64,000 nucleotides of DNA from Promethearchaeia archaeon (GTDB lineage: Archaea; Asgardarchaeota; Lokiarchaeia; Sigyniarchaeales; SOKP01): positions 64,001 to 128,000 of the forward strand of contig JAHQWJ010000120.1 in the NCBI GenBank assembly GCA_029856125.1. The letters run 5' to 3'. Numbering within the stretch: position 1 is the first letter of the stretch; the number at the start of each line of letters is the position of its first letter. Under the pieces are notes generated by a model. It was not told where the DNA came from, did no database searches, and saw only the letters and a list, made by a program, of their open reading frames with translations. Below are positions 692 to 63,807 of the stretch, piece after piece. The position numbers and the translations under genes are program-made.

Positions 692-1864
692 TTAGTATTT
701 CTTATCTACTAAAAATTTAGTTACAATAAGAGATATAATCATCAAACCAAAAACAACATAAAAGGGAAACAATATTTCTATTTCACCTAAAGGGCTCATG
801 ATCATTGGAGCAATTGCGCTACAGAAAAGCCCGATCGCATTATTGAATCCGATCCCCGAACCCTTTAACTTAGGTTGAATATCTTCAATTACTTCTAATA
901 ATAGAGTAATGCCAGCGGGATCAAACAACGCTATGCCTATTGCCAAAAATGAAACAACAATAAAAAATACGGGTAGGTTCATAGCAAAATCTCCAAAAAA
1001 GAAAGAAATTCCGAACACCATAACAATTATTTGTCCTACCATCATCAATTTTCGAGGACCATATCGATTTAATAACTTGCTGGCTATAAAAATAAAAACA
1101 ACATAAATAGCCATAACAACCAGCATTAAATAACTTGAAGTGAATTCGTCCAATCCAAAACCTTTTACGTTGTCTTGTAAAACCCATATCAAATAAGCAG
1201 TAATAAAGCCAAATAAAAACCACCTCATACTATTTAATATTAGCGTAAAGATATATTGACGCTCTTTTAGGAGAATTTTTATATTTGCTATGTTGAATTC
1301 CATATTTTTATCTTGATTCTCACTCTTCTCTGTTTTATTATCGTCTTTCAGAACGAAAAAAATAAACACTATACTAAAGATTATTAAGAATCCTGATATA
1401 AGGAAAATGCTCCTAAACTCAAAGAAACTCGCAACAAAACCCCCTATTATGAATCCAAGAAAGAATCCCACATTCATGTATAATGAATAATAACCCATTC
1501 CCTTACCATGTTGATCCTTTTTGTAGATATCGCCAATAATTGCTTGTAAAATTGAAGTATAAGCCCCTGCTCCTTGGATTGCTCTGTAGATGGTCAATTG
1601 GATTACATCCTGAGCTGTAAAACATAAAAATGTTCCTATTAGATATATAAACATTCCGAATAGGACTACTTTTCGCCGTCCTATTTTATCTGACACTGCT
1701 GCATAAGGAAATTGTAAAATACTTTGAGTCACGGAAAAAATGCCGACTATTATTCCATAAGAAGTTAGAGAACCGCCAAGACTCCCAACAAATGAAGGCA
1801 AACCAATTTGGACAATGCTCAATCCCATACTTCTGAACGCTGTTGACATTAGAACTACGATCAA
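692..1864 (-). CDS. MFS transporter
   Basis: About 12 TM segments, motif A SDKIGRR, RAIQGAG. True start may be ATT at 1906 (see findings). Confidence 0.9.
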   Translation of the reverse strand: MIVVLMSTAFRSMGLSIVQIGLPSFVGSLGGSLTSYGIIVGIFSVTQSILQFPYAAVSDKIGRRKVVLFGMFIYLIGTFLCFTAQDVIQLTIYRAIQGAGAYTSILQAIIGDIYKKDQHGKGMGYYSLYMNVGFFLGFIIGGFVASFFEFRSIFLISGFLIIFSIVFIFFVLKDDNKTEKSENQDKNMEFNIANIKILLKERQYIFTLILNSMRWFLFGFITAYLIWVLQDNVKGFGLDEFTSSYLMLVVMAIYVVFIFIASKLLNRYGPRKLMMVGQIIVMVFGISFFFGDFAMNLPVFFIVVSFLAIGIALFDPAGITLLLEVIEDIQPKLKGSGIGFNNAIGLFCSAIAPMIMSPLGEIEILFPFYVVFGLMIISLIVTKFLVDKKY

Positions 1865-2039
1865 TAAAATTCTTGTATGTTTACCAAATCCTTCGCCTAA
1901 AGAAATTTTAAGTCTCCTCTCGTATTATCGCAATTTAGTAATGAAATTCTGTAACCAATATAAATTTATTTTTCCTAACGTTTTGGAGTATGAACATCAC
2001 GTTCAATTAAAAAATTAAAATAAGTAAGGGATATTTTTC

Positions 2040-7779: not shown

Positions 7780-7991
7780 TGATACGACTATCGATAAATT
7801 TTATTTTTGTTAGGTAATCTTTCAGAAAATCATCGGGTATTCCACGTATATTAATCAATTAATTAGTACTTACTTGAATATAATTGTCAAAAAAATACGT
7901 ATGGATTTAGTTAATTATTCTTGTTTTAATAATACACTATTTAAGGGTAATTGTGTAATTTAAAATTATACTTAAGAATAAATTATATCGA

Positions 7992-8546
7992 GTGTATACT
8001 GTGAAAAATTTAGGGGATGATATCAACAACACAGATAATCCTAATTGGGATGTCATTGAAGTTTCAAAAGTTAACGACAAAATAATTATGAAGCTTTTAA
8101 GTTATCTGAAATATGATGTATCGGAAAAATTCTTTATTTCTTTTGAAAGTCTTTTGAAGTTGGGGAATAGAGTCCCAGAAGCAACGATCAGAAATATTGT
8201 TGAAGAATTGGACCAATCTCACGATTTCAAAAAAGAATTGTTTCAGTTTATTCTCAATTTTATAAACAATGAAGCTGTAGAATACCATTTACTACCACAA
8301 ATATATAGCCCCGATTTTATTGTTAGGGCTCGAGCTATAATGAAAATTAAAGAGAACGACGATGTAAGATATATTAAATTCTTGCTTCCTTTATTAGACG
8401 ACCCAGATGATTCGGTAAGGTGGAGTGTCATTAAATTTTTATCAAAGCACAACAAAAATCCTATAATTTATTCTGAATTGAAGAATCATTTAAGTAAAGA
8501 ATTAAACCCAATTATATACGATAATCTAAAAGAAATTTTTGAATAG
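7992..8546 (+). CDS. HEAT-repeat protein
   Basis: SPDFIVRARAI and LLDDPDDSVRWSVIKFL HEAT-like units; start (GTG) uncertain. Confidence 0.7.
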   Translation: MYTVKNLGDDINNTDNPNWDVIEVSKVNDKIIMKLLSYLKYDVSEKFFISFESLLKLGNRVPEATIRNIVEELDQSHDFKKELFQFILNFINNEAVEYHLLPQIYSPDFIVRARAIMKIKENDDVRYIKFLLPLLDDPDDSVRWSVIKFLSKHNKNPIIYSELKNHLSKELNPIIYDNLKEIFE

Positions 8547-8765: not shown

Positions 8766-9296
8766 ATGTCGTCGTATGACTATACATTTAAAATATTACT
8801 GCTTGGTGACGCATCGGTTGGTAAAACTTCTTTCACTAAACGATATTGTTATAATGTTTTTAATCCTAGCGAGCGATTAACTATAGGAGTTGATTTTCAT
8901 GTCAAAACTATTGAGTTACAGGAAAAAAAAATAAAACTCCAAATCTGGGACGTTGGAGGTGAGGAAAGATTTAGATTCTTACTTCCTACATATTGTTTGG
9001 GTGCAAATGCTGCATTTTTACTTTACGATGTCACAAGAACTCAAACTCTTGACAATATCAGTGAATGGACTAATATTGTTCACCAGAAAGGAGGCCTTAT
9101 ACCAATTATGCTTGTTGGGTCCAAAATCGATCTTATCGATACTCCACGCGAAGTCTCTCGAGAATACGGGATACAAATTGCTGAAAAGAATAATATGGCC
9201 TCATTTGGTGAAATATCCAGCAAAACAGGCCAAAATGTAAATAAAACATTTGAGGTTCTAACGGAGCTTACGTTAGAAAAAATTGAAAATAGGTGA
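8766..9296 (+). CDS. Rab-like small GTPase (Ras superfamily; eukaryotic signature protein)
   Basis: FKILLLGDASVGKTS, TIGVDF, KLQIWDVGGEERF, LLYDVT, VGSKID, ISSK. ATG at 8766 follows AGGTGT (ORF track starts at GTG 8757). Confidence 0.93.
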   Translation: MSSYDYTFKILLLGDASVGKTSFTKRYCYNVFNPSERLTIGVDFHVKTIELQEKKIKLQIWDVGGEERFRFLLPTYCLGANAAFLLYDVTRTQTLDNISEWTNIVHQKGGLIPIMLVGSKIDLIDTPREVSREYGIQIAEKNNMASFGEISSKTGQNVNKTFEVLTELTLEKIENR

Positions 9297-34073: not shown

Positions 34074-34910
34074 CTACTCATCCAAGTATGTGGTCCATTC
34101 TGGTTTTAGTATATAAAATTGATCAATTGCATCCCGCATAGTTTTTCGACAAATTTCAATTTCTCTGATTGTGGGTGGTTCAACTTCTTTCACCTCTTTA
34201 GCAACATTTAGTTCCCAATCAGTTTTTTCTTTTACCTGCTCTATAGTAACATTTGGATGTAAAGCGTCCAGATACGCTTCTTTGGTCACGGAATCAAAAC
34301 GCATAATGCAAAGAGGTGAGATTATAGCTTCAGGGCCCGTATCAGGGGGGTATCCTGCTTTAATTCGACTATCGTAGCCTTTTAAATATCCAGGATCGGT
34401 GATAAAATCCAATTTTTTAATAAATCTACGTTTTGAATGGTCATCTACAAGATAGATCACTCTTTTTGATAAACCTGCGATTTCCGTAGCTCCACCGCCT
34501 CCTGGTAATCGATAAATTGGCTTTTGATAAGGTCCAATTACAGTGGTATTGCAGTTTCCATACTTATCAATACTAGATGTACTTAGTAGTGCCAGAGTGA
34601 CTTCGCCACGTTGAAGAACTGATAAAGCATCAATAGAATCTCCGATAAACAATGAATTTGGGATTAAAACCGGATCACTAATCGAATATGGAAGTTTATC
34701 GGGTTTAGGAAGCTCGTCCTGAAACAAGCCAACTTCTAATACGGTGAAAAGATTTGGGGCATGAAGTAATTTTGCCATATGAACCGCGAGAAACGGCCAA
34801 TGAAAAGCATTAAATACAATATCTTCATCTTTAATCTGTCTACATGCTGAGACTAACATCATCTCAAAGCTGGTATATTCCTTACAATATATTTTTTCAT
34901 CAGTATCCAT
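34074..34910 (-). CDS. Family I CoA-transferase beta subunit (glutaconate CoA-transferase-like)
   Basis: HAPNL..VLE.G, IDKYGN.NTTVIG, RLPG.GGA, DFITDPG. Confidence 0.88.
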   Translation of the reverse strand: MDTDEKIYCKEYTSFEMMLVSACRQIKDEDIVFNAFHWPFLAVHMAKLLHAPNLFTVLEVGLFQDELPKPDKLPYSISDPVLIPNSLFIGDSIDALSVLQRGEVTLALLSTSSIDKYGNCNTTVIGPYQKPIYRLPGGGGATEIAGLSKRVIYLVDDHSKRRFIKKLDFITDPGYLKGYDSRIKAGYPPDTGPEAIISPLCIMRFDSVTKEAYLDALHPNVTIEQVKEKTDWELNVAKEVKEVEPPTIREIEICRKTMRDAIDQFYILKPEWTTYLDE

Positions 34911-35811
34911 AGTCGACAGCTCCTTGTATAAGGCTTTTTGCTTTTAATTTTGATATTTTTTCAGTTCCTAACACTTTCAAATATTCTTCTCGATCATCTA
35001 CCCCAGTGACCCATTTTTCAAGCCAATTTTCCCAATCTTCTACTGTTTTAGTTTCTTTAGCATAATTAAATCTATATTCTAAATCGGTGTAATAAAAGCC
35101 TTGCACGTAGCTAGGATGACCTCCCCAAGGTTCATGCACAACCGCATCAACTTTACTTGCCGACACAATTGTACGTTCGGGAGATTCCATAATTATTTTT
35201 TTATCTACAATTTCCTCTGCTGCAACAATTATTTTTTTACAAGAATTAATACCAAACTTTGTATCACCGATTAATCCCCACATTTGTGCATTACCTTCAC
35301 TATCTGACCTCTGTACCTGGATAACTCCAACATCGGGATTTATAGCGGGAACAACACAAAGTTCTTCTCCAGTAAAAGGACATTCCATTACAGCTGCTTT
35401 TAATCCAACTTCTTTAGGATGATCGTAAATATCAGTCCCAACAATTGAACGAATCGGCATAAAAGGTACACCCATATAACCAGCAAAAAAAGACATATTG
35501 ATCATAAAGAGTGATTGCTCGTTATAGATTACCTTTTGAGGTATTCCTTCCTCTACGGCTCTCTTAAGATTCCAAGCTGGTTGTGGACCATGTGGATTCC
35601 AGCAATGTGATGTAATTATTTGATCCGTGACTCCTGCTCCTATTAATTGATCAAACAGCATTCCCCCACTACATTTACATACCTTAAGATTCTTTATATT
35701 TTGTCTTATAATCTCATGAGCTGCGGAAAATGGAATACCATTAGAAAATCCACCTAAAAAAACTAAATCATTGTTATAAACAGATTTCTTTATTGCCTCT
35801 TCCATAGTCAT
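34900..35811 (-). CDS. Family I CoA-transferase alpha subunit
   Basis: P.SAAHEIIRQ, DQLIGAG, CPFTGE...VPAINPDV, AEEIV, GGHPS; likely start ATA 35829 or ATT 35826. Confidence 0.88.
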   Translation of the reverse strand: MTMEEAIKKSVYNNDLVFLGGFSNGIPFSAAHEIIRQNIKNLKVCKCSGGMLFDQLIGAGVTDQIITSHCWNPHGPQPAWNLKRAVEEGIPQKVIYNEQSLFMINMSFFAGYMGVPFMPIRSIVGTDIYDHPKEVGLKAAVMECPFTGEELCVVPAINPDVGVIQVQRSDSEGNAQMWGLIGDTKFGINSCKKIIVAAEEIVDKKIIMESPERTIVSASKVDAVVHEPWGGHPSYVQGFYYTDLEYRFNYAKETKTVEDWENWLEKWVTGVDDREEYLKVLGTEKISKLKAKSLIQGAVDYGY

Positions 35812-35879
35812 TATTTTATTGGGAATTATTTTTACACCTCCTAATTTTAATAAATAATCATAAAAAAATGCTTAGATAT

Positions 35880-43018: not shown

Positions 43019-44479
43019 TTAAAAAACAAAATCATGAGTATCTCTTAGTACTTCCTCGTTCACACACCAAATAAAATGCCCTTCTTCAACTTCTATCTTA
43101 TGAGGAGCATCCCGTGTGCACAATTCATTATATGACTCAGTGTAACACCTGGGATGAAAACTACAACCCGAAGGTGGCGCAATTGGACTTGGAACCTCAC
43201 CCGAAAGAACAAAAGTAATTTCTTGATCCTCTCCACTAACTTCAGATCGACTTGCTAGTAAGGCTTTTGTATAAGGGTGAGTAGGATTTGAGAATATCTG
43301 ATTTTTATTGCCTATTTCAACTATTTTACCAAGATACATTACGGCGATTCTATCTGCTATATGATGAACGACAGATAAATCATGTGTGATAAAAAGAAAA
43401 CCGTAGTTGTATGTTTTTTGTAAATCTCTTAGAAGATTAAGGATTTGAGCTTGAACAGATACATCAAGGGCGGATGTAGGTTCGTCTAATATAATTAGTT
43501 CTGGATTACAAGCTAGTGCTCTAGCAATGATTATTCTTTGTTTTTGTCCCCCTGAGAATTCGTGAGGATATCTATCCAAATGCTCCTTCTTTAGTGAAAC
43601 TTCCTCCAAAAGTTTTAATACGTGCCTTCTAAGTTTAATCCTATTAGTTATCCCTAGTATGTTCTTAAGTGGTTCTGCAATGATATCTACTACTTTTAAT
43701 TGAGGATTTAATGAAGCGTCCGGGTCTTGGAATACCATTTGAACACTTTTTCTTATTATACGCGAATAATCTTTTGGTAAGAGTTCTTCTTTTAATAATA
43801 ATTTACCTGATGTTTTCTCGATTAATCCTAAAATTGCCAAAGCTACTGTCGTTTTTCCACAACCGCTTTCTCCAACTAATCCAACAGTTTCACCTGCTTT
43901 TATACTAAAGGAAACACCATCTACTGCTTTAACAGCTCCTATTTGTCTTCTTAAAATGCCTTTAAGAAGAGGATAATGAACTTTTAAATCTTCAACATCT
44001 AATAGGGCTTGACCTTTTTCAAGAGCTTTCATTTCTTCTATATCATATTGAGGGATTGTTCTATATGAAAGCTTTTTAAGAATTATTGATGCAACGATGG
44101 AAATAGCCACAGCATATACCAGATGAACAAAAAAATAATAAAAAATACCTATGGGATCTATAAGAAAATTTATTGTAATGTAAATCAATCCCGGAAAAAT
44201 AGCTATTAAAGCAATATAGTTAGTTAACTCATAAACTAATTGGATTTTGCTCCCGTATTTTGTAGCAAATACGGTGAGTCCTATTATAATTAGAATACCT
44301 ATAATATATTGTGAAAAATAAATCCCTACTATTTCAGATAAACTAGAACTAGTTAGAAATAGGAATCCGTTTCCTAAGACGTTTAAACTAAGAATGATAA
44401 AAATTACCATCTCAATTAAAAAGGCAATTATAAAAGTTATTTTAATCCAAGGTTTAATTCTGATGTTTTTAAAAACCAT
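43019..44479 (-). CDS. oppF: OppF/DppF-type ABC ATPase with N-terminal ~4-TM domain
   Basis: [30 protein letters not shown]-terminal GCSFHPRC; first ~140 aa hydrophobic. Confidence 0.9.
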
Positions 44480-44503: not shown

Positions 44504-46414
44504 TCATTTTTCTATAAGCTCTTTAAATTCGGGATCATATAGATGACAAGCCACAAAATAATCTGGGTTAACTTCTATATTTTTTGGTATTAATGAATCG
44601 CACACTTCAAATCTATAAGGGCATCGGGGATGGAATCGACAACCTGATGGAGGATATATTAAATTAGGAACCGTTCCACTGATGACTTCTAATTTTTCTT
44701 TCTCTTCTCTAACTTTTGGAATGGATTTCAGGAGAGCTTTAGTATATGGATGATATGGCGAACTGAATAGGGCTTTTCTTGTTCCATATTCCGCAATATA
44801 ACCACTATACATCACCGCGACTTTATCACTCACCTTTGAAATAATTCCTAAATCGTGTGTAATAAACAAAATTGAAGTTTCATATTTCCTCAATAAATCC
44901 TTCATAAGTTTTAGTATTTGGTTCTGAATAGTTACATCCAAAGCAGTTGTAGGTTCGTCTGCTATCAATAAACTCGGATTGCAAGCAAGAGCCATAGCGA
45001 TCTGGACTCTCTGTCTCATACCTCCACTTAATTCGTGAGGATAAAGGTCGTAAATGCTTTCAGCATTAGGAATATTTAAATCTCTTAACATGTTTATGGC
45101 CCAATCACGAGCAATTCCAAATATGCTCTTATTAGGATTTTTTAATGCTTCTAGGGTCAATTCTTCCTCCATATTCAGAAGATAAACTTCAGTTATCTGT
45201 TTTCCTATTTTAAAAACGGGATTTAAGGAAAGTAGAGGATCTTGAAAAATCATCGTTATCTCTTTTCCACGAAATTTTAACATTTCGTCCTCATTTTTTT
45301 TTAGTAAATCCTCTCCCTTGTAAAAAACCTGACCCGCTTCAATTACGCCAGGATCTCTAATGATTTGAAGAATTGATAATGCTGTGACTGTTTTTCCACA
45401 ACCAGTTTCCCCTACTAAACCTAGTACTTCACCTTTCTTTATTTCAAAAGATATTTTCTCTAAAGCTCTTACTACGCCTTCTTCCGTGTAGAAATAAGTT
45501 TTCAGATCTTCGACTTCCAAAACGATATCCTTCAACTTATCTATGCGATCTTCTTCCTTTTTTTTAATCGCCGTTTGAAGTTTATATTTGCTTATTTCCC
45601 CACTTTCAGGTAAATATTTATATTTTGCAAAATAAAAAAATGAAATAAGATAAATTCCAATGCTTATGATTATTTGGACCCGAATATCTAAGAATAAGCT
45701 GCCAAAATCGAAAAGATTACCTAAATATGCTGTAAAAAGAAAGATAAGTAAGGACCATAAAAAGTATGTAATAAAACCACTAACGGTAAATACTTTTTTT
45801 AACACAGATCTAACAATTCTAGTTTCTCTATTTCTCACTCTATTCAGAATATAAGTTAAAATAATGCAAAAAGATACGATTACAAATTGATTAATAAAAC
45901 TAAGATAGAAAATATCGTTAAAATTTTTTGGTGAAAGGAGTAGTGAAATGTAGGCAATATCAAGAGGTTCGATGAATAATGAGATGTTAAGTATGTCTAA
46001 TAGATCAATAGAAAAAAACAAGAAAGACAGAATTAAACATGAAATTACATATATTTTGGTCCATTTCTTAAACCAGTCGCTAATTTTTTGTTCTTTTCTT
46101 GATGCAAACGATATATATAATAGAGCAAATATAAGGACTTCTAAACCCCAAAGAACAGCATCTTTATACAATGCAGCAAAAACGATATGAAAACCTTCTA
46201 ATATTTGAAAGAGAATCTTAATCCCAAATATTATTCCAAAACAAATCAAAGAACTAAATCCTACACTTGTGCTAAAAGTTTTAACTTCAATTCTAGACTC
46301 TCTTGGAGTAAGTCTAAAAATAATATAAAAACTTACAATTAGTAGTACTAGTAGAAATAAACTTTCTAAAAAAGCCATTATCGGATTGAGAAAAACAATT
46401 ATCTGCAATATCAT
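44504..46414 (-). CDS. oppD: OppD/DppD-type ABC ATPase with N-terminal ~7-TM domain
   Basis: GETGCGKT, LSGGMRQR, ADEPTTALD, GCRFHPRC...VACH; first ~270 aa multi-TM. Confidence 0.9.
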   Translation of the reverse strand: MILQIIVFLNPIMAFLESLFLLVLLIVSFYIIFRLTPRESRIEVKTFSTSVGFSSLICFGIIFGIKILFQILEGFHIVFAALYKDAVLWGLEVLIFALLYISFASRKEQKISDWFKKWTKIYVISCLILSFLFFSIDLLDILNISLFIEPLDIAYISLLLSPKNFNDIFYLSFINQFVIVSFCIILTYILNRVRNRETRIVRSVLKKVFTVSGFITYFLWSLLIFLFTAYLGNLFDFGSLFLDIRVQIIISIGIYLISFFYFAKYKYLPESGEISKYKLQTAIKKKEEDRIDKLKDIVLEVEDLKTYFYTEEGVVRALEKISFEIKKGEVLGLVGETGCGKTVTALSILQIIRDPGVIEAGQVFYKGEDLLKKNEDEMLKFRGKEITMIFQDPLLSLNPVFKIGKQITEVYLLNMEEELTLEALKNPNKSIFGIARDWAINMLRDLNIPNAESIYDLYPHELSGGMRQRVQIAMALACNPSLLIADEPTTALDVTIQNQILKLMKDLLRKYETSILFITHDLGIISKVSDKVAVMYSGYIAEYGTRKALFSSPYHPYTKALLKSIPKVREEKEKLEVISGTVPNLIYPPSGCRFHPRCPYRFEVCDSLIPKNIEVNPDYFVACHLYDPEFKELIEK

Positions 46415-47447: not shown

Positions 47448-48674
47448 TCATGTATAGATAATCCTAGGATCAATGATAGTGTACAATACATCCGTAATCA
47501 AATTACTACTTAATAGGATTATTGTAGCAACCATTACACATCCATTTATTAATGGAATATTGCCGTTTATTATCGCAGAAAAGAAAATCCCACCAAAACC
47601 AGAATATCCATATATTATTTCAATAAATACTGATCCCAATAGAGAACTAGCAACTCCCCCTATAATAAGATTGCTTGTTGGAATTAATGCATTACGAAGT
47701 GCATGATTATTAATGATCTCTTTTTCACGAACTCCTTTAGCGCGAGCCGTTCTTATGTAATCCTGATCTAGCACTTCTAACATACTGGACCTTGTTAAAC
47801 GTGTAATACCCGCAAGACTTAGAAATGTCATCGAAATCGAAGGAAGCACTAAATGACCAATTGTATCCCAAAAATAGATAGGGTCATTGAATATAATACT
47901 ATCAAGAAGTCTAAACTTTGTCCCATATGTATTTATATAAATAATTATTGGTACAATTCCAATAATGCAAAGCAATGCTCCTGATAAAATTAAATACCAT
48001 CCTACTTGGTTCTTTTTCCTAAGTTTATTTCCGCGATAAATTAGGAGAACTCCTCCAATCATTAAAAAGAAAAACATCACCGCGACAAAGACACTACTTT
48101 GAGTTGGTATTATGTCTGGAAAAGACGGATTCAACGTAACACTATTAGAATTATAAATGTCAATATCAAATTCAAAAAAAGTTGCTTCATATATTATCCT
48201 ACCAAAGAAAAATTGGAGCATTATCGCGATCCAAAAACTAGGAAATCCCGCACCAACAACTGCTACAGATCTAATCAAAATATCTTTCCTCTTCTTCCTA
48301 TTTTTTGCAGATGTAGTCCCTAGTTTAACAGCAATAATAGGTGATATAATAATTGGAATAATCATTAACTCAAGCGTCCTTGGAAGAACTGTTATAATTA
48401 TGTCGTTAATCGACCAACCCTGGAATTGACCACTATAGGATTCCCCCCAATTACCTGTGAAAAAATCTCGAAGGTAATATGCATATTGAACATAAATTGG
48501 TTCATTTAAACCTAATCTTTCCATTTCATCGAAATAAATATTTATATCCCATCCAGTCATCATCGATTGTAAAGGATTAATAGCCATCGCATGCGATAAA
48601 AAAAAAGTGATTGTCAAGACAGCGATTAACATTGGAATCATAACGAGGATGCGTCTTACAATATATTTAAACAT
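47448..48674 (-). CDS. oppB: OppB/DppB-type ABC permease with extra TM hairpin
   Basis: G.WG.S, P.TLEL, RSSMLEVLDQDYIRTARAKG, HALRNA, IDPR; likely true start ATA 48695. Confidence 0.92.
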   Translation of the reverse strand: MFKYIVRRILVMIPMLIAVLTITFFLSHAMAINPLQSMMTGWDINIYFDEMERLGLNEPIYVQYAYYLRDFFTGNWGESYSGQFQGWSINDIIITVLPRTLELMIIPIIISPIIAVKLGTTSAKNRKKRKDILIRSVAVVGAGFPSFWIAIMLQFFFGRIIYEATFFEFDIDIYNSNSVTLNPSFPDIIPTQSSVFVAVMFFFLMIGGVLLIYRGNKLRKKNQVGWYLILSGALLCIIGIVPIIIYINTYGTKFRLLDSIIFNDPIYFWDTIGHLVLPSISMTFLSLAGITRLTRSSMLEVLDQDYIRTARAKGVREKEIINNHALRNALIPTSNLIIGGVASSLLGSVFIEIIYGYSGFGGIFFSAIINGNIPLINGCVMVATIILLSSNLITDVLYTIIDPRIIYT

Positions 48675-48709
48675 GTTAATAGATTTTTTAGCTATTTTAA
48701 TTCACCTCG

Positions 48710-49231
48710 TTAAATTTCACGTCGAGCTTTAACATATCTTTTCAAAAACATACCAGAAAGAGCTCCACTTATATTTATTCCAAATAAAATTAATAAATTG
48801 ATATACCCCTGGAAAGAAGCAAACTGAAGAATGAGTGGTTCAAAAGAAAATCCAAACATAATTAAATAAAAAAGGAAACCTTCAAAAACAATAAAAGGAA
48901 CTAACCATAAAGATGCCCTAATTCCATAATGCGCAATATCTTCTTTATAGGTTAACCAAAAGCAAATCGAATATAATAACAAACAATCAACGAAATACCA
49001 GCCTGAATAAACTGAGCTAATAAATAAAAATTCATAGGTCCAGAAAATTATCGATTTAACAGAGCTGGGTATATCTTCAAAGGAAAACCATTTCTCTCCT
49101 TCATCAAACATAAATATATTAACTATTATTCCAAAGTATGCAAGAAAAACAATGATATATGCAAAAGTAACTCTTCCTTGACGACCCCAATCTATTTTCC
49201 AACTTCCTTTATCCTTACTATTAACTGGCAT
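48710..49231 (-). CDS. Conserved 4-TM membrane protein leading the ABC operon (orfX)
   Basis: Four hydrophobic segments; a homologous C-terminus occurs at the same position in the second cluster (63860..64000). Confidence 0.8.
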   Translation of the reverse strand: MPVNSKDKGSWKIDWGRQGRVTFAYIIVFLAYFGIIVNIFMFDEGEKWFSFEDIPSSVKSIIFWTYEFLFISSVYSGWYFVDCLLLYSICFWLTYKEDIAHYGIRASLWLVPFIVFEGFLFYLIMFGFSFEPLILQFASFQGYINLLILFGINISGALSGMFLKRYVKARREI

Positions 49232-59556: not shown

Positions 59557-61419
59557 TTAATTTAGGGTTGTATCTTCTTTTTGAACTTTTTTAATAGAAA
59601 TCTCAGCTTTATCTTGATGAGCTGGATCGTAAAGGTAACAAGCTACATAATAATTTGGTTCAACTTCTATGCTTTTTGGTTGCTCTGAATCGCAAGGTTC
59701 AAAACAATATTTACATCGAGGGTGGAATCTGCATCCTGCTGGGGGATAGATTAAATTGGGAACTAGCCCTGAGATAATGTCAAGTCGGTGCCTTTTTTTG
59801 CCCACTACCGGTACGGAACTTATAAGTCCCTTTGTATAGGGATGATAAGGCTTCGAAAATAGCTTTTGAATTTTACCATATTCAACGATAAATCCACTAT
59901 ACATAACAGCAACACGGTCACACATTTTTGAAATAATACCTAAATCGTGAGTGATAAATAGAATTGAAGTATTGTATTTTTTTTTCAGATCTTTCATCAG
60001 TTTTAGAATTTGATTTTGAACCGTAACATCTAATGCGGTAGTGGGTTCATCTGCTATTAGGAGTTTAGGACTGCAAGCTAATCCCATTGCAATTTGAATT
60101 CTCTGTCGCATTCCACCGCTTAATTCATGAGGATATCTATCAATAATTTGCTCTGGAGCTGGAATATTTAATTCTCTTAAAAGATTTTCGCTCCAATCTC
60201 TAGCTATACTATATATACTTTTTTCTGGCTGATTAATGGTTTCCATTAGTAATTCTTTTTCCATATGAAGAAGATATACTTCAGCAATCTGATCTCCTAC
60301 TTTAAAAACGGGATTAATAGAATTAAGAGGATCTTGAAAAATCATAGTAATCTCTTTTCCTCGGTATTCAAGTATTTTTTCGGATTCCTGCAGTAGGTCT
60401 TTGCCTTTAAAGAAAACTTCTCCTTTCATGATTTTTCCAGGTGGACGAACTAATTGAAGAATTGATAAAGCAGTAACAGATTTTCCACAACCAGTTTCAC
60501 CAACAAGACCTACTACCTCTCCTTCAAGGATTTTAAAAGAAACCCCCTCTACAGCACGAACAATTCCTTCTTCCGTATAAAAATAGGTAGTGAGATTTTT
60601 CACATTTAAAATTACTTTTTCGCCTTCTAGAGATTCAGAATTGGCCGTCCTATCTATATCTATTCCTTCCTGAATCTTCAACTTGCTTTTTTCATGCGCT
60701 TTAGGTAAAAATACCTTTTTTGTGAATAGATAAAAAACTAAAACATAAACACCACTAACCACACCAATTAAGATCCGAATATCTTGTTCATATGGCCAAA
60801 TCCCAAGTAATCTGGATAAATACATCTCAAAAATAATGAGTTGAATCGTCCACACTCCTAAAGAAGCAGCACTTCCAATTATTTGACTATTTCTAAGTAC
60901 CTCCTTTGGAAGTCTGATGTCAATCGAGAGAGTTCTATTTAGTATTGAAGTGAGAGCTCCAAGGATAAATACCATTATTATAGCCCAAATTAATCCTAAA
61001 TGTAATAAATCAGCTCCCCTTAAATCAAAATCTTGTATCTCAATCCCTAATAATCCAAAAGATGTATATACTACAGCCGCAATCCAAGTTATAATTAAAA
61101 TTATCACTAACAATTTTTTAAAGAGCTTAGTCTCGCCTTTTCTCCCAAATATATGATGGAATAGGAAAAAGGCTGTTGTCATTATAGCAAAATGTAATGG
61201 TTGGTTATTTAAAATTACAAAAAATTCAAAATAATATCCTAAATTTTCAAATGGTAAGCGTATTCCTAATGATATACCAAGAACTATAAGAATGCTTATA
61301 AGATTACTTTTAAGGCTAACTTCTTTTGGAATTTGATGCTCTTCAGGAAGCCAGTTATTTAATCGATTAATTATTAAAAATAATAATAAAGCTGCTATTA
61401 TAGCTTCAATTAAAGCCAT
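59557..61419 (-). CDS. oppD: OppD/DppD-type ABC ATPase with N-terminal ~7-TM domain
   Basis: GETGCGKS, LSGGMRQR, ADEPTTALD, GCRFHPRC; likely true start ATA 61452. Confidence 0.9.
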   Translation of the reverse strand: MALIEAIIAALLLFLIINRLNNWLPEEHQIPKEVSLKSNLISILIVLGISLGIRLPFENLGYYFEFFVILNNQPLHFAIMTTAFFLFHHIFGRKGETKLFKKLLVIILIITWIAAVVYTSFGLLGIEIQDFDLRGADLLHLGLIWAIIMVFILGALTSILNRTLSIDIRLPKEVLRNSQIIGSAASLGVWTIQLIIFEMYLSRLLGIWPYEQDIRILIGVVSGVYVLVFYLFTKKVFLPKAHEKSKLKIQEGIDIDRTANSESLEGEKVILNVKNLTTYFYTEEGIVRAVEGVSFKILEGEVVGLVGETGCGKSVTALSILQLVRPPGKIMKGEVFFKGKDLLQESEKILEYRGKEITMIFQDPLNSINPVFKVGDQIAEVYLLHMEKELLMETINQPEKSIYSIARDWSENLLRELNIPAPEQIIDRYPHELSGGMRQRIQIAMGLACSPKLLIADEPTTALDVTVQNQILKLMKDLKKKYNTSILFITHDLGIISKMCDRVAVMYSGFIVEYGKIQKLFSKPYHPYTKGLISSVPVVGKKRHRLDIISGLVPNLIYPPAGCRFHPRCKYCFEPCDSEQPKSIEVEPNYYVACYLYDPAHQDKAEISIKKVQKEDTTLN

Positions 61420-61496
61420 AACTATATTTGGTTGGTAAAATTGTAGTAGTATACTAAATCATCTCCGAATTTTCCTTCTCAACTTTTTATAAACCT

Positions 61497-62511: not shown

Positions 62512-63807
62512 TTAATTATAAGTAACTCTTGGATCTATAATTGTATACATAACATCTGTAAGGAGCGTACCAACAAGTATTATTATAGTTGAAAATACTA
62601 ATATCCCTTGTATCACAAAATAGTCTCCCATGAATACTGAACGAACCATATAATACCCTAGACCTGTGTAGTTAAAACTAATCTCTATAAAAAGCGATCC
62701 AAGTAGAGCAGCAGTTGTGTTTCCTATGATGAGAGTACTAGTTGGTAATAAAGAATTTCGAAGAGCGTGCTTGTTCAGGACTGTTTTTTCTTCAACACCT
62801 TTAGCACGAGCCGTTCGAATATAGTCTTGATCAATAACATCTAACATACTTGAACGCGTTTGTCTAGTAATTGGAGCCAAGGATACAAATACCATGCATA
62901 TAACTGGGATAAATAGATGATTTATTGTATCCCATAAATGATGTTGATCATTATATAATATAGCATCAATTATTCTAAATCCCGTACCGTATGAAAACGT
63001 ATATAAAAAAGAAGTTAAGATTATAAGTAGAACTAAGCAAATTGCTATTAATGATCCCCCCCAAATTAAATATTTAGTCCGCTTAGACTTATTTTCTTTC
63101 TCCATAAGTGGCATAACTTTCCTTTTTAATGAAACAGCTCCTTTATATACTAGAACAATACCAATGATCAGAAATAACAACATGGCTAAATAACTCAGCG
63201 TGAATAATGGGGGCGGCGGAACGATAGCTGCTGATGTATAACCCAAATACTCTGGTGCATTTGAGTACATAAGTGGCAGATTAATATCTTCAAAAGTAAG
63301 AATTCTTAGATTGAAGAAAAGCATTTGTAATAGCTTTGCTATAAAAAATACTGGGAAACCTGCTCCAAGAATCGCAACAAAACGTATAAAAATGTCTTTA
63401 TTTTTATTTTTATGCTTTGCGGATGTAACTCCAAGCTTGACAGCAATAATAGGTGCTATTATTATGGGGAGTAACACTAATTCGATTGTTTTAGGCCAAA
63501 CCTTGACAATCATGTCCAATACAGGAGTTCCTGGCATAGCTACATAAGAAACACCCCAATCGCCTGAGAAGAAATTTACCAAATATTTCCAAAGTTTAAT
63601 ATGTACTGGGTCTGTAAACCCCAATCTATCCAACTCTCTTTGGAGTGTAACCTCATCCATTCCAATATTTAATAAACTCATACTAGGGTCTGCCATCATC
63701 ATTTGAGATAACAAAAAAGTGACGATTAAAACAGCTAAAAGCATAGGAAACATAAATAAAATTCGTTTTATGATATATTTTATCATATTAGTTTGTTTTC
63801 GAGCCAT
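62512..63807 (-). CDS. oppB: OppB/DppB-type ABC permease with extra TM hairpin
   Basis: GDWGVS, PKTIEL, RSSMLDVIDQDYIRTARAKG, HALRNS, IDPR. Confidence 0.92.
   Translation of the reverse strand: MARKQTNMIKYIIKRILFMFPMLLAVLIVTFLLSQMMMADPSMSLLNIGMDEVTLQRELDRLGFTDPVHIKLWKYLVNFFSGDWGVSYVAMPGTPVLDMIVKVWPKTIELVLLPIIIAPIIAVKLGVTSAKHKNKNKDIFIRFVAILGAGFPVFFIAKLLQMLFFNLRILTFEDINLPLMYSNAPEYLGYTSAAIVPPPPLFTLSYLAMLLFLIIGIVLVYKGAVSLKRKVMPLMEKENKSKRTKYLIWGGSLIAICLVLLIILTSFLYTFSYGTGFRIIDAILYNDQHHLWDTINHLFIPVICMVFVSLAPITRQTRSSMLDVIDQDYIRTARAKGVEEKTVLNKHALRNSLLPTSTLIIGNTTAALLGSLFIEISFNYTGLGYYMVRSVFMGDYFVIQGILVFSTIIILVGTLLTDVMYTIIDPRVTYN

Follow-up and report, generated by a model that had tools for sequence, protein, structure and literature searches.

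Probable ATT- and ATA-type translation starts behind ribosome-binding sites in a Lokiarchaeia-type archaeon

In the genome of a Promethearchaeota/Lokiarchaeia-type archaeon of the Asgard group, three or four genes of one analyzed stretch of DNA very probably begin at ATT/ATA-type codons placed behind a ribosome-binding (Shine-Dalgarno, SD) site, and sequence comparison makes us highly confident that this near-cognate start habit is real genome-wide. The stretch, called the window below, has 64,000 nt and covers forward-strand positions 64,001-128,000 of contig JAHQWJ010000120.1 (GCA_029856125.1). The source genome (G000) has a size of 3.69 Mb and a GC content of 32.7%, and ~3,200 coding frames were called in it from stop to stop. 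Near-cognate starts would be found in about 4-9% of its genes, with a floor of ~2.6%. The start repertoire also includes ATC, ACG and CTG, and probably GTA, GTC and GTT. The mechanism, which we consider very likely, would be that the SD places the P site, that the initiator Met-tRNA accepts a mismatched codon there and that loose proofreading lets such a start stand. In the text, G007 is the sister species of the source genome, other G numbers are further Asgard genomes, C is a contig and L a locus.

Start sites of four genes in the window

The MFS transporter gene (Pfam; 692-1906, minus strand; 404 aa from ATT) has its SD at 1913-1920 (AGAGGAGA), and 6 nt past it lies the ATT (1904-1906) that a sequence-only reading of the window had proposed as its start. 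An in-frame TAA is found seven codons above, with TTG 1864 and ATG 1849 as the first canonical codons. The site is present as proposed, and in G007 and six orthologs (69-84% identity) the same order is kept, i.e., GAGGAG, 6 nt, ATT or ATA and Ser, with the near-cognate codon 19 codons above the annotated ATG; GAGGAG and ATT/ATA followed by Ser were found in all orthologs examined. Translation from the annotated start would begin within the first hydrophobic stretch, and most database copies are without the 19 aa, with public calls of mostly 385 aa. This ATT is present in two independent assemblies and is almost certainly the start of the gene.

The oppB copy 1 gene (47448-48695, minus strand) encodes a BPD_transp_1 permease (Pfam) of 415 aa from ATA. 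Its SD (48702-48710, minus strand; 7-nt match) contains GAGGTGA at 48708-48702, the TGA of which is in frame and closes the frame. The ATA (48693-48695) lies 6 nt past the SD, is followed by AKKSIN and has a model posterior of 0.95. It had been aligned with the ATG of oppB copy 2 (63805-63807, minus strand; begins MARKQTNMIKY), and the orthologs agree with this alignment: G007 has ATC at the same position, in six homologs an Ala codon follows ATG or TTG there, and the homolog in G038 has ACG, with a canonical codon absent above the conserved motif. The first in-frame ATG (48672-48674, minus strand) is located seven codons downstream of the ATA, and its Met is also present internally in homologs that start upstream. 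No exact database record for the protein from ATG 48674 was found. Based on these comparisons, we predict with considerable confidence that ATA 48695 is the main start.

The oppD copy 2 gene (59557-61452, minus strand; 631 aa from ATA) encodes an N-terminal membrane region followed by an ABC ATPase and an oligo_HPY domain, and Pfam agrees with its identity. An SD-like site at 61459-61467 (minus strand; GGAGATGA) holds an in-frame TGA, and the ATA at 61450-61452 lies 6 nt past it, 11 codons above ATG 61419. This ATA is identical in six independent assemblies, and all six gene calls start at ATG 61419. The codons at this position are ATT-ATA in the G014 ortholog and ACG-ATA in the G003 homolog, with a canonical codon absent above both. 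The earlier proposal holds with respect to the site, the spacing and the stop, but the match to oppD copy 1 (ATG 46412-46414, minus strand; begins MILQIIV), on which it had also relied, is only loose. ATA 61452 is likely, with good confidence, to be the start.

The fourth gene encodes a CoA-transferase alpha subunit (Pfam; 34900-35826, minus strand). Behind its SD (35834-35842, minus strand; AGGAGGTGT, 8-nt match) stand two adjacent codons (35824-35829), ATA 35829 at a spacing of 4 and ATT 35826 at a spacing of 7, both of which had been named as candidates; the ATT fits better. The first ATG, 35811, lies five codons below the ATT, and the Pfam match begins at residue 7. ATA-ATT is also retained in G007, where GAGGTGA precedes it and the TGA is in frame, and a paralog on C118 has ATT there. 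A near-cognate start, with ATT favoured over ATA, is probable for this gene, which is the least secure of the four.

Alignment of ortholog N-termini, which had been suggested as a check, therefore supports the oppB copy 1, MFS and oppD copy 2 starts, with weaker support for the CoA-transferase. Spacing of the same kind was said to precede ATG and TTG starts elsewhere, and five canonical controls indeed have 5-6 nt. The expectation that gene callers miss such starts is also seen in the public calls for the MFS and oppD copy 2 genes.

Other features of the window were also observed. In the frame at 7959-8546 (plus strand) the first canonical codon is GTG 7992, and the model weakly favours ATT 7965 or ATA 7968 (posteriors 0.34 and 0.23), which makes this frame a possible fifth case. 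The frame at 8766-9296 (plus strand), a Rab-like small GTPase by sequence motifs, starts at ATG 8766 behind an SD and not at GTG 8757. The OppD/OppF pairs (44504-46414, 43019-44479, 59557-61452 and 57787-59511, all minus strand) have ~185-315 aa N-terminal to the ABC ATPase, with 5-7 hydrophobic stretches in both OppD copies; these N-terminal regions gave zero Pfam matches, and that of OppD copy 2 also zero Atlas matches. An AMP-binding (acyl-CoA synthetase) protein at 51802-53613 (minus strand) has an unassigned ~75-aa N-terminal piece, which a paralog on the same contig has too and which we take to be, possibly, an AbrB-like DNA-binding domain. Rfam families were not found within the window.

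Codons behind strong SD sites in the whole genome

The 3' end of the 16S rRNA of the source genome is GGATCACCTCCT, which gives AGGAGGTGAT as SD and GGAUCACCUCCU as anti-SD, and ATG, TTG and GTG peak 4-9 nt past SD matches in this genome. A genome-wide tally of the codons behind strong SD sites, as the sequence-only reading had advised, was made on SD orphans, i.e., SD matches of at least 5 nt with ATG, GTG and TTG absent in range, with the codon scored at a spacing of 5-7 nt. ATT, ATA or ATC (ATH) stands there in frame at 96/243 sites, compared with 28/508 out of frame (p=6e-30) and 88/762 downstream (p=4e-20), and orphans with a 6-nt match have it in frame at 36/73. By spacing, the share is 36/97 at 5 nt, 34/73 at 6 nt and 26/73 at 7 nt, with ~10% elsewhere; the near-cognate peak is thus sharp at 5-7 nt, as it is for ATG, TTG and GTG. 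Three scrambled SD motifs gave zero enrichment of these codons in the source genome. The residue after an SD-led ATH codon is Ser, Ala, Pro, Gly or Thr in 50/96 cases; the same residues follow true starts in 42% and internal Ile in 28.5% (p=1e-6 vs 50/96). It was also found that a stronger SD accompanies a weaker start codon.

A model with free start frequencies gives ATG 71.4, TTG 9.5, ATT 4.3, GTG 4.0, ATA 2.5, ATC 0.9, CTG 0.5 and ACG 0.4%. By this model ATH reaches 7.7% in the source genome, 5.1% in G007 and 0.1% in 713 control genes of other Asgard families, figures that rest on a canonical-biased prior (a flat prior was non-convergent); subsamples range from 3.8 to 8.9% ATH, the genome-wide fraction being model-dependent. 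The model-free floor is given by 68 excess sites in 2,620 genes, which is ~2.6% of these genes and 12% of SD-led genes. A start-codon matrix between the source genome and G007, with few informative pairs at 90% identity, contains three ATG-ACG, one ATT-ATG and one ATA-ATC swaps. Homology-only positioning of starts against local proteins was too coarse for single-codon calls.

One alternative is that translation starts at the next in-frame ATG, TTG or GTG, and that an SD followed by ATH is a product of chance in an AT-rich genome with many Ile codons. ATA, ATT and ATC do make up 9.7% of codons, strong SD sites are absent from most genes (an SD of at least 5 nt precedes 14% of ATG starts), and the ATG of oppB copy 1 and of the CoA-transferase gene lies only seven and five codons downstream. 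However, the enrichment is specific in frame and spacing and is absent with scrambled motifs, and in 52/105 near-cognate candidates the first canonical codon is at least 10 codons downstream. A downstream start would also cost aIF1 its zinc knuckle, uS4 its N-terminus and the MFS protein part of its first helix. As a general explanation it is very unlikely; for single genes it is plausible, with an appreciable minority chance for the CoA-transferase and a clearly smaller one for oppB copy 1.

Some further candidates were rejected. TTA as a start is not above chance at an SD of at least 5 nt (p=0.08 and 0.19). Termination-reinitiation does not serve as a general route, with stop overlap or abutment in 11/105 near-cognate starts vs 59/238 SD-led ATG starts, and its geometry is seen in single genes such as Pop5. 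A change of the genetic code (ATA=Met) is contradicted by internal ATA: of the positions aligned to it in G007, 84% have ATA, ATT or ATC and 2% have ATG.

Ribosomal-protein genes, initiation factors and known systems

The ribosomal-protein operons of 61 Asgard genomes were examined by homology only, with the SD not used as input. In nine genuine ribosomal-protein genes of the family (from uS8, uL6, uL15, uS3, eS4 and uS14) a canonical codon is absent above the conserved core, and ATA or ATT stands at the position of the ATG, TTG or GTG of orthologs; two further family cases were set aside as frameshift-like. An SD of at least 5 nt precedes 8/9 of these genes vs 82/300 canonical starts, a difference whose p value is overstated because four of the genes are uS14 of related genera and are kin rather than independent. 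The uS4 gene of the source genome starts with ATC, with a canonical alternative absent.

Outside the family the samples are small. The control genome G078 has 0/20 SD-orphan near-cognate sites, pooled ribosomal-protein loci of non-family Asgard have 4/98 without a peak, and G066 and G092 show a hint of signal (6/16 and 5/23). The signal is strong in the family, absent in some other genomes and hinted at in others, so the habit is patchy in Asgard. Relaxed start selection in the lineage, as the earlier reading had put it, thus stands for the whole source genome, its sister species and the ribosomal-protein genes of the family, and has to be modified in that it occurs patchily and in more than one lineage. 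Near-cognate starts outside the family were noted at L102, L103, L106, L107, L186 and L189: the uS3 gene of two other families requires CTG or ATC/ATA, and RNase HII-like and MoaA-like genes of G066 are placed at ATT/ATA, with an in-frame GTG inside the SD as the alternative.

In the mechanism that we favour, the 16S 3' end would pair with a strong SD and place the P site 5-7 nt downstream, in line with the positional rule observed. The single ordinary Met-tRNAi(CAU) would take the third-base mismatch of AUU, AUA and AUC and insert Met, and would accept mismatches at other bases, as in ACG and CUG, less often. A strong SD would compensate for the weak codon, which is the correlation seen, and aIF1/aIF2 proofreading would be loose enough for near-cognate starts to persist in essential genes. 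This loose setting may come from low aIF1, self-limited via its own AUU start. The SD-set position, the codon swaps at homologous starts and the stronger SD with weaker codons are direct observations.

The source genome has a single initiator tRNA of canonical type (A1-U72, three G-C pairs, CAU anticodon), and a second initiator-like tRNA was not found in its ARAGORN set of 30 tRNAs, which is incomplete. That incompleteness speaks for another explanation, namely that the mRNA is edited to AUG, that a special initiator tRNA is at work (with a GAU or UAU anticodon, or with a modified CAU reading AUA) or that Ile is the first residue, and archaea do read AUA via a modified CAU tRNA-Ile. Yet ATT, ATA, ATC, ACG, CTG and GTA/GTC swap at one position, which is beyond any single edit or anticodon, and the bias at residue 2 agrees with an initial Met that is later excised. 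We regard this explanation as very unlikely.

The aIF1/SUI1 gene (L061:1417-1755, G000:C84) itself starts with ATT; its frame is closed 9 nt above and a canonical alternative is absent. ATT is found in 17/17 rows of the family, and the start is non-ATG in 26/29 rows of the order, most other members of which have TTG, GTG or ATA. Internal ATT changed at 27% of positions between the source genome and G007, while the ATT of the aIF1 start is invariant, which would fit an infC-like feedback. We infer that such feedback, holding the aIF1 level low through its own AUU start, is the best lead for the loose setting. Loss or damage of aIF1 was rejected as the cause: the protein is present, with its zinc knuckle and basic loop and a full alignment with solved archaeal aIF1s. 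In loop 1 it has Trp where the solved proteins have Phe or Tyr; in Pyrococcus, the residue at this position has a stabilising effect on the 30S:mRNA complex (PMC6237735). The source genome has aIF1, aIF1A and aIF2 alpha, beta and gamma, and no lesion that explains the laxity was found in aIF1, aIF1A, aIF2, the uS9/uS19 tails or the 16S P-site motifs. Changed uS9/uS19 tails or P-site motifs were likewise rejected, as uS9 has a terminal Arg and nothing unusual was seen in the uS19 tail or the 16S motifs.

The only aIF2-gamma gene of the source genome is split in its P-loop (GHVDHG/KTT) by a 29-nt hairpin-forming insert (G000:C136:18999-19027, plus strand), the in silico excision of which yields a 520-aa frame. 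The break occurs at the same place in ~17 family genomes, and the insert is probably a tRNA-type mRNA intron. This gene also encodes a helix-hairpin-helix domain (HHH_5) at its N-terminus (G000:C136:18629-18998, plus strand). One could suppose that the insert limits functional aIF2 and thereby causes the laxity. However, among the family aIF2-gamma matches listed, 34/55 are unbroken from profile position 2, with frames of 484-568 aa vs a 407-position profile; G100, G048 and G149 have an unbroken gene yet obligate ATA/ATT starts, and G019, G021 and G008 an unbroken gene yet an aIF1 ATT. The insert is contradicted as the cause, which makes this explanation most unlikely, and it could only modulate the rate. 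Finally, sequencing or assembly errors or decaying pseudogenes, conceivable in a draft metagenome bin of 153 contigs with 6% contamination, are largely refuted and have next to no probability, given the agreement of six (oppD copy 2) and two (MFS) independent assemblies, the same or other near-cognate codons in orthologs and the intact frames of essential single-copy genes.

Animal mitochondria start at ATA, ATT and ATC and eukaryotes also at ACG and CUG; a genome-wide tolerance of third-position mismatch is the feature in common with the starts described here. Mitochondrial mRNAs, however, have no leader and read every ATA as Met, whereas here internal ATA is ordinary Ile and the SD sets the position. 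In E. coli, ATG, GTG and TTG are ~99.9% of annotated starts, only two AUU-type genes (infC and pcnB) are confirmed, and the codons work at 1-2% of AUG (10.1101/063800). The infC (IF3) and pcnB genes, together with the minor initiators ATT, ATC, ATA and CTG of NCBI table 11, have the same codons and the same SD dependence as the starts described here. Our candidates resemble them in having the SD at canonical spacing and a near-cognate codon aligned with the ATG, GTG or TTG of homologs, less clearly so in the CoA-transferase. Met is delivered by the initiator tRNA in infC and pcnB, and here the residue-2 bias and the single initiator tRNA point, indirectly, to the same; in both cases the gene of a fidelity factor starts with AUU, infC in E. 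coli and aIF1 here. The type is rare in E. coli and restricted to a few regulated genes, whereas here it would extend to 4-9% of genes, including those of ribosomal proteins. Canonical archaeal SD-led initiation (Pyrococcus, Sulfolobus) has the same factor set, initiator tRNA, anti-SD and spacing, but an archaeal review gives only AUG, GUG and UUG as starts (PMC7531240), and aIF1 was reported to select against non-canonical codons (PMC6237735). Ribosome profiling of Haloferax volcanii found ~30% of putative alternative starts to be near-cognate and set them aside as possible false positives (PMC7261190); those sites are secondary, whereas the ones here would be the main start of conserved genes. 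A 2026 Asgard review describes SD sites as rare in Lokiarchaea and is silent on start codons (PMC12993045). Our literature search on Asgard or archaeal near-cognate starts, with most subscription papers outside its coverage, found no report.

Near-cognate starts behind an SD would lead standard gene finders to shorten these proteins, and Prodigal-type callers would truncate or miss ~100-250 genes in each Lokiarchaeia genome. Inventories of eukaryotic-signature proteins would be affected, as would N-terminal membrane helices and binding domains and any protein expressed from an Asgard annotation. The timing of strict AUG selection en route to eukaryotic scanning also becomes testable.

GTA, GTC and GTT starts and Pop5

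After removal of the sites explained by near-cognate codons, GTA, GTT or GTC follows an SD of at least 6 nt in 7/23 cases vs 0/46 and 5/115 (p=2e-4 and 7e-4, for a codon group chosen after the data were seen). Candidates with an in-frame ATH alternative were discounted. The strongest GTA/GTC candidate is the RNase P subunit Pop5 (L202:1495-1510, G000:C84). In 17 metagenome Pop5 loci the TGA of the SD closes the frame and the K-x-E-R-x-R-Y motif is retained; 14 of the 17 have ATA, ATT or ATC within the two codons to which the start is confined and one further locus has GTG. In the source genome, and in two contigs of independent origin that are 98.5% and 95% identical to it, only AGA-GTA-GTC-GTA precedes the motif, which leaves GTA or GTC as the start of Pop5 there. 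The stop of the upstream Rpp30 overlaps the Pop5 start codon, so reinitiation may help there.

We lean towards the view that a strong SD also licenses such two-mismatch GTA, GTC and GTT starts in essential genes such as Pop5. The joint proposal, in which these starts are licensed and the stringency is in addition set by aIF1 feedback on its own invariant AUU start, is tentative and rather doubtful. If true, it would be an archaeal counterpart of the IF3/eIF1 loops and the most permissive cellular setting known.

More GTA, GTC and GTT candidates directly past an in-frame stop were noted on contigs C63, C112, C77 and C9 of the source genome and at L008:255-230 and L006:2998-3010. The candidates with these codons include a Hef/FANCM-like helicase, a ubiquitin/MoaD-like protein (its paralog has ATT), a probable methyltransferase, an oxidoreductase and, in G024 and G011, an oppD-like gene.
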